Assembly: GCA_934169725.1 (NCBI GenBank)
Contig: CAKPOF010000002.1
Coordinates: 73,986 to 137,985, forward strand
Direction of reading: 5' to 3'
Length of the DNA: 64,000 bases
Source: an uncultured Clostridia bacterium
Lineage (GTDB): Bacteria > Bacillota > Clostridia > TANB77 > CAG-508
A model generated the notes under the pieces. That model saw only the letters and a program-made list of their open reading frames with translations. It was not told where the DNA came from and ran no database searches. Of this stretch, positions 3,956 through 63,556 are shown piece after piece. Each line of letters begins with the position of its first letter. Within the stretch, counting starts at the first letter, position 1. The position numbers and the translations under genes were made by a program.

Positions 3956-4139
3956 ATGATATATTAATAAAATTATACATTATGTTGCCTACAAAAATAA
4001 AAATTATCCTAGAGTTTACTACTCTAGGACAACTTTTCTAATTAAAAGTATAACAATAAAAATATGTAATATCAAGAGTTTTATTGAAAAATAATATAGG
4101 GTTATAGAAATTTTCTCTAAAAATAAATAATTATGTTTT

Positions 4140-4277
4140 AAATTCAATAAATATTATTTTTCATACCTTGGTGTCGCAATCTATTAATTAAAAATTAATA
4201 GTAGATTGCTCCAATCGCACTCACTAGCGTTCGTTTGATCGCTTACGCGGTATTTCAAAATAATATTTATTGAATTT
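4140..4277 (+). repeat. Intergenic repeat element, copy 2 (full, with both TIRs)
   Basis: TIR aaattcaataaatattattttt / caaaataatatttattgaattt bracket cataccttggtgtcgc, the hairpin caatctattaat..attaatagtagattg, and tccaatcgcactcactagcgttcgtttgatcgcttacgcggtat. Confidence 0.8.
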
Positions 4278-4463
4278 TTATAATTTAGTTTTATATAAAA
4301 AAATTCCTAGAGTAGTAAACTAAAAGAAAAATAAAATAAAACACTATAACATATCAATTTAATACTTGCAAAAATATAAAATACAAGTATATAAAAAAAT
4401 TAGTTGTAAATAATAATACTAGGATATTGAATTATCAAATAGAACAATTGGGGGAAACAAAAG

Positions 4464-8213: not shown

Positions 8214-8250
8214 TTCATTTTCATACCTTGGTGTCGCAAATCACATATTA
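8214..8250 (+). repeat. Truncated repeat element (left end only), copy 3
   Basis: ttcataccttggtgtcgcaaatcacatattaaaatcat; the 3' conserved half is missing. Confidence 0.65.
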
Positions 8251-8341
8251 AAATCATATTTTTAACTTTTTAAAACTATTGAATAAAAAAGTAAATTTTG
8301 ATAGAATATATTGGAAAATAAAAAATAAGGGAGCGTAAAGA

Positions 8342-9675: not shown

Positions 9676-11421
9676 ATGAAAAAGAAAAGTATAATAATGA
9701 TAATATTAGTATTACTAGTAATCATAGGAATTTTTTCAATATATGTATATAAAAACATTCAAAAAAATGATAGAAAGTATGATATTGAAAATATAGATAT
9801 AAGTGAATATCAATATTTTGCATTAAAACAAGATAGTAAATATGGTGTTTTAAATAAAAATGGTGATGTTATTATAAAACCAGAATATACAAATATAGTT
9901 ATACCAAATCCTAAAAAAGATGTATTTGTTTGTTATAATGATGAAAATACAAAAGTTTTAAACCAAAATGGGGAAGAATTGTGGAATCAATATGAAAAAA
10001 TTGCACCAATAAAATTAAAAAATATTGCAAATAATTTAATGTATGAAAAAAATATTTTAACTTATGAAAAAGATGGAAAAATTGGATTAATAAATATAGA
10101 AGGTAAAAATATAACAAAACCAATATATGAATCAATTGAAGGATTACCATATAAAGAAGGAGAATTATTAGTAAAACAAAATGGAAAATATGGTGTATTA
10201 AACAATAAAGGAAAATATTTGGTGCATGCAGATTATGATCAAATATTAGTAGATAATTATAATACTGAAAAAGATGGATATAAAAATGCAGGATATATCA
10301 TATCTAACACAACTGATAATGGATATAGATATGGATATATGGATGTTAACGGAAAAGTTATATTAAAACCAGAATATAATGAAATTTCAAGAATAGTTGA
10401 TATAAATGATGAAAAAAATGTATATTTAATTGCAGCTGAAAATGGTCAATATGGAATGTTTAAAAATGATGAACAAATAATAAAAAATGAATATCAATCA
10501 ATATCATATAATAGTGAAAATAATACATTGATTTTAGAAAAAACAAAAAAATTTGGAGTTGCAACAATTGATGGAAAAATTATTATACCAATAGAATATT
10601 CCCAAATAGATAGCACAGGTGAATATATATATGCCACAGATAAAGATTCAAATGTTCAAGTATATGAAGAAGATGGAACAAAGGTATCGGTTGATAGCAA
10701 TATATATCTAACTAAAACAACAAATGATAATTACAAAATAAAAATTGATAATTCACAAGGTTCAAAATATACAATAACAGATAAAAATGGAAAAGAATTA
10801 ACAAAAGGTAATTACACATATATAGAATATTTGTATGACGATTATTTTATTGTGTCAATAGCTGGGGGAAAAGTTGGAGTAATTAATATAAAAGAAGAAC
10901 CTATTATAGATATAAAATATAATTCTGTAGAAAAGATACAGGATACAGATTATATTGTAACGAGATTAACAGAAAGTAATACTACACAATTATATAATAA
11001 AAAACTAGAAATGATATGTGAAATGTCAGGAGCTGTAATAGACAAGAAAAATAATTATATTAAAATATATAATGATGAAGAAACTAAATATTTTGATATG
11101 AATGGAAAAGAAATAGAAAATACAAAAGTCCTACCAGAACAAAATATTTATGCAAAAGAACAAAATGGAAAATGGGGATTTGTGGATAAAAATGGAAAAG
11201 TAGTTGTAGATTATAAATATGAAAAAGTAACAGATTTAAATTCATATGGTTATGCAGGAATAAAAGAAAATGGAAAATGGGGTGTAATAGATTCTAATGG
11301 AAAAGTAGTTTTACAACCTAAATATGAATTTAATGTCAAAACAGAACCTGAATTTATAAAGCAATACTATAAAGTTGAATATGGATATGGAGAGTTTTAT
11401 TATACAAATCAAGATAATTAA
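9676..11421 (+). CDS. Membrane-anchored WG-repeat (KWG) protein
   Basis: N-terminal TM; repeated NGKYGVLN / DGKIGLIN / NGKWGFVDKNGKVVV motifs. Confidence 0.75.
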   Translation: MKKKSIIMIILVLLVIIGIFSIYVYKNIQKNDRKYDIENIDISEYQYFALKQDSKYGVLNKNGDVIIKPEYTNIVIPNPKKDVFVCYNDENTKVLNQNGEELWNQYEKIAPIKLKNIANNLMYEKNILTYEKDGKIGLINIEGKNITKPIYESIEGLPYKEGELLVKQNGKYGVLNNKGKYLVHADYDQILVDNYNTEKDGYKNAGYIISNTTDNGYRYGYMDVNGKVILKPEYNEISRIVDINDEKNVYLIAAENGQYGMFKNDEQIIKNEYQSISYNSENNTLILEKTKKFGVATIDGKIIIPIEYSQIDSTGEYIYATDKDSNVQVYEEDGTKVSVDSNIYLTKTTNDNYKIKIDNSQGSKYTITDKNGKELTKGNYTYIEYLYDDYFIVSIAGGKVGVINIKEEPIIDIKYNSVEKIQDTDYIVTRLTESNTTQLYNKKLEMICEMSGAVIDKKNNYIKIYNDEETKYFDMNGKEIENTKVLPEQNIYAKEQNGKWGFVDKNGKVVVDYKYEKVTDLNSYGYAGIKENGKWGVIDSNGKVVLQPKYEFNVKTEPEFIKQYYKVEYGYGEFYYTNQDN

Positions 11422-11427
11422 TAAAAA

Positions 11428-11463
11428 AAGAATCAAATATTTTTATGTTTGATTCTTTTTTAT
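11428..11463 (+). terminator. Rho-independent terminator after the WG-repeat gene
   Basis: aagaatcaaa...tttgattctt followed by tttttt. Confidence 0.65.
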
Positions 11464-11513
11464 AGTATTTTTTTAAAATTTAATATGTATTATTTTTAAA
11501 ATGTTCATTAATT

Positions 11514-11664
11514 AAAGTTCAATATTTATTATTTTTTTTCATACTTTGGTGTCGCAAACTGCATATTAAAATTACTAGTATGTAGTTTGCTCCAAATCGC
11601 ACTCACTATCGTTCGTTTGGTCGCTTACGCAGTATGAAAAAAATAATAAATATTGAACTTTAAT
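11514..11664 (+). repeat. Intergenic repeat element, copy 4 (full, with TIRs)
   Basis: TIR aaagttcaatatttattatttttttt / gaaaaaaataataaatattgaactttaat bracket catactttggtgtcgc, the hairpin caaactgcatat..atgtagtttg, and tccaaatcgcactcactatcgttcgtttggtcgcttacgcagtat. Confidence 0.85.
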
Positions 11665-11782
11665 TTAAAACATAACAATATAAATATCATTAATATTAAT
11701 TTATGTTATTACAATAAAATGTTTAAATTAATATTATAGAGTAAATACTTATAAAGAATAAAAAAAGAAAAAAGGTGAATTT

Positions 11783-12631
11783 ATGAAATTAGGAGTTGCA
11801 TTGTCAGGAGGAGGGGCAAAAGGAATTGCACATGCTGGAGTGCTAAAGGCTTTACAAGATAGTAATATCGAAATAAGTGCTATAGGTGGAACCAGTTCTG
11901 GTGCATTTATAGCATGCATGTATGCTTTAGGCTATTCTCCAGAAGAGATGTATGAAATATTTAAAATATATTCTAAAGAAATGGTAGAAGAGGAAAAAAA
12001 GGGAAAAATAGGTAAAATAAATAAGATATTTAATTTTAAAAGTACGGGTTTTAGAAAAGGTGAAAATATTGAAAAAATTTTTAATAGATTATCAGAACAG
12101 AAAGGAATAAAAAATATATCACAAATACAAACATTACCAATATCAATACCAGCAGTTGATATAAAAGATGGTAAAGAGTATATTTTTACTAATAATATTT
12201 CTTCAGATGCCAAAGTATATAAGAAATATATAACTGATATTCCCATTGGAAAAGCATTAAGAGCCAGTAGTAGTTTTCCAGCTTTATTTTGTCCTTGCGA
12301 TTTTAAAGAACATAAATTTTTAGATGGAGGAGCTTTAAATAATATACCAGTTTTAGAGGTAAAAAGGCAGGGAGTAGATAAAGTTTTGGCAATAAATTTT
12401 AAGGCAGATGATATAACAAATAGTAGTAATTATATGGATATAGCAATGAGAACAATTGACTTAATGGGAAACAAAATATCTGAAAAAAATTTAAAGATGA
12501 GTGATTATGTTATAACACTAGAGTTAGAAAAAACGGGATTGTTAGAAATCAACAAATTGGAGAAATGTTATGAACAAGGATATTATCAAACTATAAATAA
12601 AATAAATGAGATAAAAGAAATAATCGAGTGA
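11783..12631 (+). CDS. Patatin-like phospholipase
   Basis: GGGAKGIAHAGV oxyanion motif and GTSSGA (GxSxG) lipase motif. Confidence 0.85.
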   Translation: MKLGVALSGGGAKGIAHAGVLKALQDSNIEISAIGGTSSGAFIACMYALGYSPEEMYEIFKIYSKEMVEEEKKGKIGKINKIFNFKSTGFRKGENIEKIFNRLSEQKGIKNISQIQTLPISIPAVDIKDGKEYIFTNNISSDAKVYKKYITDIPIGKALRASSSFPALFCPCDFKEHKFLDGGALNNIPVLEVKRQGVDKVLAINFKADDITNSSNYMDIAMRTIDLMGNKISEKNLKMSDYVITLELEKTGLLEINKLEKCYEQGYYQTINKINEIKEIIE

Positions 12632-45413: not shown

Positions 45414-45457
45414 AAATTTATGTTACAATTCATAGTTTATAAAATAGATTATTTTTA

Positions 45458-45516
45458 AATTTGATAATATAATATATTGTTTTTTTATACCTTGGTGTCG
45501 CAAACCCATATTAAAA
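45458..45516 (+). repeat. Truncated repeat element (left TIR plus start of core), copy 5
   Basis: aaatttgataatataatatattgtttttttataccttggtgtcgcaaacccatattaaaaat; the left TIR is about 85% identical to that of copy 7. Confidence 0.65.
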
Positions 45517-55866: not shown

Positions 55867-56566
55867 ACTATTAAGGAGTGAAAAAATGAAATTCAAGATA
55901 GATCTGAAAATTTTTTTATTAATCATTTTATTTTTATGCACAAATCAAATAAAAATATATGGAATGATGATGTTATTTGCAATTATACATGAGTTAGGTC
56001 ATTTAATAGCAGGAATAATATTAAAAATGAAGCCTAATCAATTAAAGATAAATCCATTGGGAATCTCCATAGAATTTGATATTAAAAATAGAGATTATAA
56101 TATAAAAATTCAAAAAGCAAATTTATTGGAAATAAAGAAAATTATTGTTGCATTGGCTGGACCATTAACTAATTTTATAATTATTTTAATTTTAAGATAT
56201 ATAAATATATTTTCTGAATATGATAAACTTATAATGACATATTCAAATGCTTTATTAATAGTATTTAATATTTTGCCGATATATCCTTTAGATGGAGGCA
56301 GAGTTTTAAAAAGTTTAATATATATTTATAAAGGAAAGCATTTAGCGGAAGAATATACATATAATACATCATATATAATATTAATATTGTTAACAGCAAT
56401 AAGTAGTGTAACTGTGTTATGGTTAAAAAATATATCAGTATTTTTTATAATAATATTTTTATGGGGATTACAAATAAAAGAAAGTATAAAATATAAAAAT
56501 AGAAAGAAACTGTATGAACTTATAAAATATGAAACAGAGAGTTACAATTCACAGCTTATAAAATAA
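55856..56566 (+). CDS. spoIVFB: SpoIVFB-type site-2 protease (M50, pro-sigma-K processing)
   Basis: HELGH zinc motif and NILPIYPLDGG. Confidence 0.8.
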   Translation: MNYKLLRSEKMKFKIDLKIFLLIILFLCTNQIKIYGMMMLFAIIHELGHLIAGIILKMKPNQLKINPLGISIEFDIKNRDYNIKIQKANLLEIKKIIVALAGPLTNFIIILILRYINIFSEYDKLIMTYSNALLIVFNILPIYPLDGGRVLKSLIYIYKGKHLAEEYTYNTSYIILILLTAISSVTVLWLKNISVFFIIIFLWGLQIKESIKYKNRKKLYELIKYETESYNSQLIK

Positions 56567-56608
56567 ACTATTATTAAATTTGTATAATAAAAAAAATAAA
56601 TCGTTTTT

Positions 56609-56754
56609 AAATTTAATAATATATTGTTTTTTTCATACCTTGGTGTCGCAAACCACATATAAAAATTACTAGTATGTAGTTTGCTCCAAATCGCACTCAC
56701 TATCGTTTGTTTGATCGCTTACGCAGTATTTCAAAAAAATATATTATTAAATTT
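56609..56754 (+). repeat. Intergenic repeat element, copy 6 (full, with TIRs)
   Basis: TIR aaatttaataatatattgttttttt / caaaaaaatatattattaaattt; core cataccttggtgtcgc; hairpin caaaccacatat..atgtagtttg; tccaaatcgcactcactatcgtttgtttgatcgcttacgcagtat. Confidence 0.85.
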
Positions 56755-56886
56755 TTATAAGTTAAATATTTTAAGTTGGAAATTGTAATAACAGAGAAAT
56801 TTGGTGAGAAAAAACTAAAAATTCCTATTGAAAATAAAACAAATTAATAGTAAACTATTACTAAAGAAAAAGTGGAGGGAATGCAA

Positions 56887-63287: not shown

Positions 63288-63363
63288 TAAATGTAAAAAA
63301 GTAATCTAGTTTTAGATTACTTTTTAAGTGCTGTGTTACAATTCGTAATTCTAAATATTTATA

Positions 63364-63508
63364 AAATTTGATACTATATTGTTTTTTTATACATTTGTGT
63401 CGCAAACCACATATTAAAATTATTGGTATGTAGTTTGCTCCAATTCGCACTCACTATTGTTCGTTTGATCACTTACGCGGTATTTAAAAACAATATAGTA
63501 TCAAATTT
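63364..63508 (+). repeat. Intergenic repeat element, copy 7 (full, with a perfect 23-bp TIR)
   Basis: aaatttgatactatattgttttttt ... aaaaacaatatagtatcaaattt; core tatacatttgtgtcgc; hairpin caaaccacatat..atgtagtttg; tccaattcgcactcactattgttcgtttgatcacttacgcggtat. Confidence 0.85.
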
Positions 63509-63556
63509 AGAAATGATTTATTTCATAAACTGTGAATTTTAACACAGCAAGTAAAA

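Follow-up and report, generated by a model that had tools for sequence, protein, structure and literature searches.

The repeat and its family

The stretch of DNA analysed here (the window) comprises 64,000 nucleotides of a contig from an uncultured Clostridia bacterium, with a G+C content of 25.4%. It contains seven copies of a dispersed repeat, all of them intergenic and all on the + strand, which carries nearly all of the genes. Using GGTGTCGCAA as an anchor, we located five full copies (anchors at 1494, 4170, 11548, 56642 and 63396) and two fragments that comprise only the 5' part of the element (anchors at 8230 and 45494).

The region spanning 11514–11664, for which a first-pass annotation made from the sequence alone had described an internal hairpin, corresponds to the entire fourth copy (11510–11665); the internal hairpin proper occupies positions 11554–11590. 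The 5' outer arm of this copy (11510–11545) and its 3' outer arm (11631–11665) pair in two blocks: 29 nucleotides at 11510–11538 form a perfect inverted repeat (100% complementary) with 11637–11665, and CATACT at 11540–11545 pairs with AGTATG at 11631–11636. The 5' arm is followed by a conserved junction, TTGGTGTC (11546–11553), whose GTGT has two candidate partners, ACGC (11627–11630) and GCAC (11599–11602), both invariant. The internal hairpin, which we term P2, consists of 15 pairs and a 7-nucleotide loop (GCAAACTGCATATTA, loop AAATTAC, TAGTATGTAGTTTGC) and includes two G·T pairs, G11561·T11583 and T11566·G11578. Between P2 and the 3' arm lies a domain (TCCAAATCGCACTCACTATCGTTCGTTTGGTCGCTTACGC, 11591–11630) that is nearly invariant between species and free of covariation, and for which there are two mutually exclusive candidate helices, CCAAA..TTTGG or GTTTGG/TTACGC. 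Copy 4 as a whole has a predicted fold energy of −55.1 kcal/mol, as compared with −19.9 ± 3.5 for shuffled sequences (z = −10).

The other copies, likewise on the + strand, differ in their completeness. Copy 1 (1480–1587), at a locus orthologous to L007:5889–5996, is represented by its core only; it has no matching 5' arm, and a terminator-like hairpin of the upstream gene stands in that place. Copy 2 (4140–4277) is bounded by a perfect 21-nucleotide inverted repeat (4140–4160 and 4257–4277). A terminator-like hairpin upstream of copy 2 (CCTAGAGTTTACTACTCTAGG, 4004–4040) is matched by a partial inverted copy downstream of it (CCTAGAGTAGTAAACT, 4294–4330), the two forming a second, outer layer of inverted duplication around that copy. 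Copy 6 (56541–56789, core 56628–56738) begins with the terminal motif GTTACAATTCACAG at 56541 and has a degenerate 3' terminus (..GGAAATTGTAAT), such that its 3' end, read by eye, is approximate. Copy 7 (63335–63543, core 63382–63492) extends over 209 nucleotides from GTTACAATTCG to CTGTGAATTTTAAC.

The two 5' fragments are copy 3 (8219–8254), which retains the end of the arm, the junction and the 5' strand of P2, and copy 5 (45422–45514), which begins with the terminal motif GTTACAATTCA. Copy 3 is a remnant, as a related species keeps a full copy at the orthologous site (L040:223–384; that copy has an insertion of ∼50 nucleotides in distal P2). Both fragments are cut at the same point, in the P2 loop, and in each case the start codon of a co-oriented gene follows 105–112 nucleotides downstream. 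The identical cuts may reflect hairpin-stimulated deletion, or the 5' half may have been kept as an expression signal.

An exact-pattern scan, covering one genome per species, returned at least 92 matching stretches. Among the 80 matches listed, 53 MAG assemblies are represented, labelled as uncultured Clostridia, Clostridium or Eubacteriales and obtained from human, rabbit, goat, sheep and mouse gut; one further match, in a Bacteroidota MAG, was taken as chance. A covariance model built on 96 copies identified 105 copies in the scanned loci and the window, including divergent ones beyond the reach of the pattern. Judged from these sequences, the repeat would be a mobile, non-coding inverted-repeat element (a MITE-like fold-back element) of ∼200 bases present in at least 53 species of uncultured gut Clostridia.

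From the outside inward, the element consists of a terminal motif, GTTACnnTTCA (recognisable in a quarter of the copies), the outer arms, an inner stem (ATACC/GGTAT), the junction TTG(T)GTGTC, the variable P2 hairpin and the nearly invariant 3' domain. P2 is closed by GCAA/TTGC and often contains a 1x1 mismatch at pair 7 or 8. The outer arms thus flank a conserved, asymmetric core of ∼100 nucleotides. Strict extension gives arm lengths of 20–72 nucleotides (median 35), and in local alignments of the arms 4080 of 4440 aligned positions (92%) form Watson-Crick pairs. Where both termini can be recognised the element measures 163–214 bp, with a single outlier of 345 bp; the overall range is ∼160–250 bp. 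P2 is longer in one subfamily (L006, L009, L010, L058, L078, L023 and L067), where its distal part is a perfect 9-bp stem, GTTGAAAGA/TCTTTCAAC. The copies are intergenic, 3 of ∼100 seeming to overlap a called ORF, and insertions and deletions of 1–2 nucleotides exclude the core as coding sequence.

Comparison with known families and sequence collections identified no relative. At the gathering score no Rfam family matched the element anywhere in the window; around copy 4 at E ≤ 10 the only overlap was a spurious one with a plant miRNA, and at six other loci nothing overlapped the element at E ≤ 1. The element pattern had zero matches in viral contigs. The 19-nucleotide 3' block by itself gave three identical matches there, which we judged to be chance because their context is coding-like and the rest of the element is missing. 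Searches of phage and plasmid collections with blastn returned AT-rich noise only. A promoter and terminator scan around the copies showed no excess over shuffled sequences, and reading of the element by eye revealed no convincing sigma-70 promoter.

Covariation of the stems and the question of strand

The central observation of the first-pass annotation was that the strands of the hairpin vary between copies yet stay complementary. The sequences on which it drew were correct with one slip, the 3' arm in copy 1 being aattgatagtagattg rather than attaatagtagattg. Inside the window alone, covariation is less well supported than the title of that annotation implied. True double changes occur at three positions and separate only copies 1 and 2 from copies 4, 6 and 7, so that the window by itself amounts to two lineages. 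Copy 4 differs from copies 6 and 7 by one-sided changes only: CTGC in the former and CCAC in the latter face the same GTAG, which leaves one C·A in copies 6 and 7. That mismatch had been taken as consistent with recent decay from a copy-4-like master, an account at odds with the form found in relatives, ACT(C/T)CATAT, which has its mismatch at pair 8; by sequence comparison, copy 4 and copies 6 and 7 are separate derivatives of that form.

In a structural alignment of 101 distinct copies, compensatory pairing was confirmed, and strongly. The covariation of the whole structure was 0.266, as compared with 0.115 ± 0.005 for shuffled alignments (0 of 500 reached the observed score) and 0.04–0.07 when pairing partners were slid by 1–3 columns; all five whole-structure measures exceeded every one of the 500 shuffles and all of the slid controls. 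Two-sided changes were found at 11 of the 13 P2 pairs and at all five of the innermost outer-stem pairs (inner P1), which are 96% paired (one of them, for example, being UA in 62 copies, CG in 20, AU in 12 and GC in 2). Within P2, pairs 1–4 are almost invariant (GCAA/TTGC), with two divergent copies changing these closing pairs in a compensatory manner (GCAG/CTGC in L066, GAAG/CTTC in L087). Pairs 5 and 6 are paired in 96–98% of copies and display four and three Watson-Crick types, respectively (pair 5: UA 45, CG 44, AU 9, GC 1, unpaired 2; pair 6: CG 72, UA 23, AU 1, UG 1, unpaired 4). The recurrent 1x1 mismatch shows at pairs 7 and 8, which depart from canonical pairing in 41 and 49 sequences, respectively, and beyond them the distal stem varies in both sequence and length. 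The helix of the 3' domain showed zero covariation in the same alignment, its sequence being simply conserved.

Strongly covarying stems that surround a nearly invariant junction and 3' domain are the usual signature of a functional RNA. The repeat could accordingly be read as a structured + strand RNA with a three-way junction, acting in cis in mRNAs or as a small RNA, with selection on the RNA keeping the pairing and mobility serving as its vehicle. There is precedent in bcr1, a repeat that is transcribed and displays compensatory changes (PMC3184786). We nevertheless regard this explanation as doubtful, for reasons that begin with the distribution of wobble pairs.

The first-pass annotation had argued for a + strand RNA (or single-stranded) structure from the two non-Watson-Crick pairs of copy 4, which are G·U on the + strand only. 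That argument survives in part. The G·U pairs of copy 4, distal P2 and the 3' domain agree with it, whereas the C·A of copies 6 and 7 (a G·U pair on the − strand), the arms and inner P1 do not. Across the six basal pairs of P2, 596 of 606 cells are Watson-Crick (with 4 G·T, 2 A·C and 4 other), and wobble pairing is thus used on neither strand. Over the whole of P2 there are 68 G·T and 30 A·C, or 65 and 13 outside the internal loop; this distal excess has p = 2e-9 by sequence count, but represents few independent events, because it lies mostly in three or four columns common to large subfamilies. In the inner five pairs of the outer stem the bias is reversed (G·T 2, A·C 10), and the full outer arms (4080 Watson-Crick, 70 G·T, 54 A·C, 236 other) show essentially none (p = 0.18 for G·T against A·C).

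The 3' domain can be read either way. If its TTTGG forms a CCAA/TTGG helix, the G/A variation within that motif produces C·A, favouring the − strand; in the GUUUGG/UUACGC hairpin that RNAalifold prefers, the same variation exchanges G·U for A–U, favouring the + strand, with exclusively purines (G or A) opposite U (GU 77 and AU 26 at one position, GU 94 and AU 10 at another). Fold energies provide no consistent + strand preference: the + strand folds better in copies 1 and 4, the − strand in copies 2 and 6, and copy 7 is near equal (−22.3 vs −21.9). Over the first 12 pairs of P2, sense copies average 9.96 or 9.93 canonical pairs depending on the strand that is read. We conclude that there is a weak + strand signal in distal P2 and the 3' domain, and that the support for a + strand RNA, although such an RNA may exist, is weak.

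The lack of an Rfam family also speaks against an RNA, as does a metagenome contig of the same species (L098:696–1086), which has 4 substitutions in the 391 positions aligned with 11400–11790 of the window. Three of them are clustered in 12 nucleotides of the core, one disrupting the G–C pair that closes P2. These substitutions reflect either relaxed constraint on copy 4 or low-coverage sequencing errors.

Arm complementarity, mobility and genomic context

A second line of evidence on how pairing is kept came from the outer arms. We compared 65 pairs of related copies whose arms are 70–97% identical, considering positions paired in both. At 1564 positions the pair was unchanged. At 124 it had changed on both sides and was still Watson-Crick (56 transitions and 68 transversions), 51 changes were one-sided (21 G·T, 16 A·C and 14 other) and only 2 two-sided changes no longer paired; these are counts over related pairs of copies rather than independent events, and they do not distinguish replacement from a paralogue from correction within an element. 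Compensation by transversion does not pass through a wobble intermediate. Copies antisense to both of their neighbouring genes pair as well as sense copies do (arms 94% and 92.5% Watson-Crick, basal P2 6.0 of 6 and 5.9, respectively).

The two-sided transversion changes and the equal pairing of antisense copies match the prediction of templated correction at the level of DNA. Template switching is known to render imperfect inverted repeats more perfect (PMC7202029). In quasipalindrome template switching, a replication error copies one arm onto the other, which predicts two-sided changes of any type, as seen here; it is a mutational mechanism rather than an element, and its experimental cases concern short quasipalindromes in E. 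coli, phage T4 and yeast. The covariation of the stems fits DNA-level copying between arms at least as well as it fits selection on an RNA. The opinion of the first-pass annotation that the pairing is not simple DNA palindrome maintenance is therefore poorly supported for the arms, given the 124 two-sided changes (68 of them transversions) and the equally good pairing of antisense copies. For the outer arms DNA-level maintenance is the better supported explanation, and for the internal hairpin it is also possible. The same observations weigh against RNA selection, since arms and basal P2 are essentially Watson-Crick only and transversions make up over half of the compensated changes in the arms.

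One orthologous locus could be compared in four species: its copies have arms that diverge at several positions, and yet every copy is complementary to itself. Identities there are 92–95% in the 3' domain, 64–86% in the arms, and 78–88% and 76–85% in the upstream and downstream coding flanks, respectively. That the 3' domain is more conserved than the coding flanks points to constraint on the core, and is also an argument in favour of a functional RNA.

Several features indicate that the element has moved. In 5 of 85 copies the inverted repeat is flanked immediately by exact 8-bp direct repeats (for example AATATTTA in L060, AGTTTAAA in L070 and TAAATTCT in L030), where 0.41 are expected and 200 shuffles gave at most 2; with one mismatch allowed there are 14, as compared with 6.6 expected. 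Several subfamilies start with GTTAC(A/T)(A/G)TTCA, and the terminal motif, with up to one mismatch, occurs at 34 of 180 ends as compared with ∼3 expected. About 90% of the copies have no recognisable target duplication and 67 of 90 have no terminal motif, so the transposon signature rests on a minority of copies. The arms belong to the element itself, because arms of ∼50 nucleotides are shared at different loci of one genome with different flanks; such arms (in L005, L029, L074 and L054) rule out both insertion into pre-existing palindromes and derivation of the arms from target DNA.

Orthologous sites differ, too, in whether they hold a copy. In L012, L027, L042, L018 and L040 the corresponding intergenic region, between a WG-repeat gene and a patatin gene, lacks copy 4, and no copy was found within 2.5 kb of patatin orthologues of 48–69% identity; the same-species contigs that we found all carry it. 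The window in turn lacks a copy that L040, L042, L012 and L027 have in common between an aminotransferase gene and a convergent FAD-protein gene. An exact empty site for copy 4 was not identified, the intergenic DNA of related species being too diverged to align. A third inverted-repeat element, unrelated and ∼300 bp in length, was seen in relatives (L040:3681–3990, L042:1210–1318, L007:3348–3465 and L074:4908–5009); as these relatives hold it in the intergenic region of copy 4, that region appears to be a repeated landing site.

A search of the window and of 92 loci, each up to 8 kb long, yielded no autonomous partner IS whose ends match those of the element. The window has a single transposase, a 430-amino acid ORF on the − strand (20574–21866) with an N-terminal HTH_38 domain, which matches an IS30-family transposase model at 92 bits (cutoff 80); it has no clear terminal inverted repeats and shares no ends with the element, and was rejected as the partner. 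Nearby, ORF 22023–22928, which has no Pfam match, contains a 21-nucleotide tandem repeat (22177–22267; 4.3 copies, 98% identity). Orphan terminal motifs in L046, L013 and L082 were likewise set aside, as they adjoin ordinary genes rather than transposases.

A conserved shape with free stem sequence could also be explained by single-stranded DNA hairpins recognised by a structure-specific enzyme, such as an HUH/Y1 transposase or a tyrosine recombinase. Stems whose sequence varies as pairing, the 1x1 mismatch at P2 pair 7 or 8 and the flanking single-stranded motifs are kept would be expected of such a substrate, Watson-Crick dominance with no use of G·U fits DNA over RNA, and the seven copies of the window do share the gene-rich strand. 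We consider this explanation quite improbable, however, given that inverted-repeat termini with 8-bp repeats point to staggered-cut DDE integration rather than to the product of an HUH or tyrosine enzyme, that orientation is locally variable and that no gene for such an enzyme was seen beside the copies in a scan of part of the window and a few ORFs of the loci.

Orientation relative to genes is biased. Of the copies flanked by co-directional genes, 46 are in sense and 15 in antisense orientation (p = 9e-5), or 39 and 14 after orthologous loci were merged by hand (p = 8e-4). Replication direction was rejected as the determinant of orientation, since four of the six two-copy loci have copies in opposite orientations. 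Some sense copies lie inside operons, namely groES–groEL (L010, L078) and a PTS gene pair (the L041 group), these genes being named from their encoded peptides. With three quarters of such copies co-oriented, and some within operons, the + strand would often be part of mRNAs; we infer that the element cannot be a strong terminator within operons. The sense bias (75%) again favours a functional RNA, against which stands the antisense quarter, with its equally good pairing.

The same bias bears on a further possibility, that the repeat is a functionless and immobile palindrome kept by mutational template switching, the core being conserved through recent common descent. Concerted two-sided changes including transversions, arms with no wobble preference, and truncated remnants such as copies 3 and 5 are all as that account would have them. 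It fails to explain a core that is conserved in at least 53 species and, at one orthologous locus, above the level of the coding flanks, or presence and absence at orthologous sites together with an enrichment of target duplications. In addition, the mismatch at P2 pair 7 or 8 persists in 40–50% of copies, and frequent correction by template switching should erase such mismatches. The persistent mismatch, the conserved core and the 3:1 orientation argue against a purely mutational account, and we hold it to be very improbable.

Proposed origin and relation to known elements

We believe that the hairpin forms the middle stem of a transposable element of the non-autonomous, MITE-like fold-back kind, which has spread among uncultured gut Clostridia of low GC content, a reading to which we assign a probability of roughly 0.6. 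The element would be mobilised in trans by a putative DDE-type transposase. Complementarity of the arms, and probably of P2, would be kept mainly by a process at the level of DNA in which one arm templates the other; candidate processes are quasipalindrome template switching during replication and conversion from paralogues, and foldable copies may in addition be favoured for mobilisation. Stepwise RNA compensation through G·U intermediates would not be the main route. The invariant core would serve as a sequence-specific recognition module for a protein or nucleic acid, and in mRNAs the long hairpin may act as an RNase III or other processing site or as a 3'-end stabiliser, by analogy with other MITE hairpins. 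Two observations fit this MITE-like reading poorly: a 3:1 co-orientation with genes is unexpected for a selfish element that acts purely at the level of DNA, and distal P2 and the GUUUGG/UUACGC hairpin have a + strand wobble pattern.

A more far-reaching and, in our estimation, improbable variant would make the conserved core of ∼100 nucleotides a functional nucleic-acid module of a new kind within a fold-back transposon. The core would combine a three-way junction, in which junction and 3' domain are invariant, with three TCGC motifs and a hairpin whose 1x1 mismatch is conserved. Such a module, which could be a protein-recruiting or self-processing structure of RNA or single-stranded DNA, would drive a route of mobilisation or repair that re-synthesises one arm from the other. 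If true, it would explain why the arms differ by copy, and by species at the same locus, yet remain complementary.

A full-text literature search found no prior description of the element, in line with the absence of an Rfam match. By description, the closest described analogue appears to be bcr1, a MITE-like repeat of ∼155 bp in the Bacillus cereus group that has 5-bp direct repeats, is transcribed and keeps a double-stem fold through compensatory changes (PMC3184786). The two are alike in being Firmicutes intergenic repeats of similar size, with short direct repeats, a patchy distribution between relatives and a multi-stem fold with compensation. As compared by description, they differ in that bcr1 has 5-bp repeats and a two-stem, cruciform-like fold, whereas the present element has 8-bp repeats, longer and variable arms and a core conserved across many species.

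MITEs more generally give rise to hairpin-forming transcripts and have direct repeats that fade with time, and the hairpins of Correia elements are cut by RNase III (PMC10969869). The present element resembles the Correia/NEMIS repeats of Neisseria, ERIC, RUP and QMITE in its terminal inverted repeats, fading duplications, AT-rich intergenic sites and lack of a transposase. Classical MITEs, however, have conserved termini, a variable interior and arms common within a family; here the arrangement is reversed, with a conserved interior and copy-specific, self-complementary arms. It is unusual for a MITE to combine an invariant interior with arms that are free in sequence but self-complementary.

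REP elements, at 20–40 bp, are GC-rich and carry a GTAG or CGTC tag (PMC3733652). Membership of the REP/RAYT group was not indicated for our element, which measures 160–250 bp, is AT-rich and has no GTAG or CGTC tag, and for which the scanned part of the window and ORFs of a few loci showed no RAYT gene. REP/BIME sequences with their RAYT enzymes, the ends of IS200/IS605 and integron attC sites likewise consist of hairpins that are recognised through their shape, their irregularities being conserved and their stems free in sequence, but none of them has inverted-repeat termini with 8-bp duplications.

IS6-family elements (IS1216, IS257, IS26) make 8-bp target duplications. An IS1216 end, GGTTCTGTTGCAAAGTTT, that adjoins a gene annotated as 'IS6-like element IS1216 family transposase' resembles the end of our element, GTTAC(T/A)(G/A)TTCACAGTTT, at ∼13–15 of 18 positions in an alignment made by eye with two single-base gaps. 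We regard this resemblance as a lead; in AT-rich DNA a match of this kind could arise by chance. Neither the window nor the immediate neighbourhood of any copy showed an IS6-family gene.

The repeat adds a widespread family to the poorly known genomes of uncultured gut Clostridia, and its position after genes and inside operons such as groES–groEL means that mRNA processing may be affected. It also counsels caution in RNA discovery: covariation of a textbook-like kind can come from templated correction of inverted repeats at the level of DNA, and covariation alone is no proof of an RNA.

Two further sequences carry ends of the same type. A 116-nucleotide sequence present twice in one MAG (L005:7653–7768 and, on the − strand, L074:76–191; 95% identical) begins with the terminal motif GTTACTGTTCACAGCC and has neither a matching right end nor the core; it could represent a single isolated end, or one end of some larger element. 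Abutting a copy of the main element at L075:620–828 is a second inverted-repeat element of 209 bp, with the same termini (GTTACA(A/G)TTCACA), a different interior and TCGAACTCACTTCG in common with the 3' domain, suggesting that one and the same machinery moves a wider superfamily.
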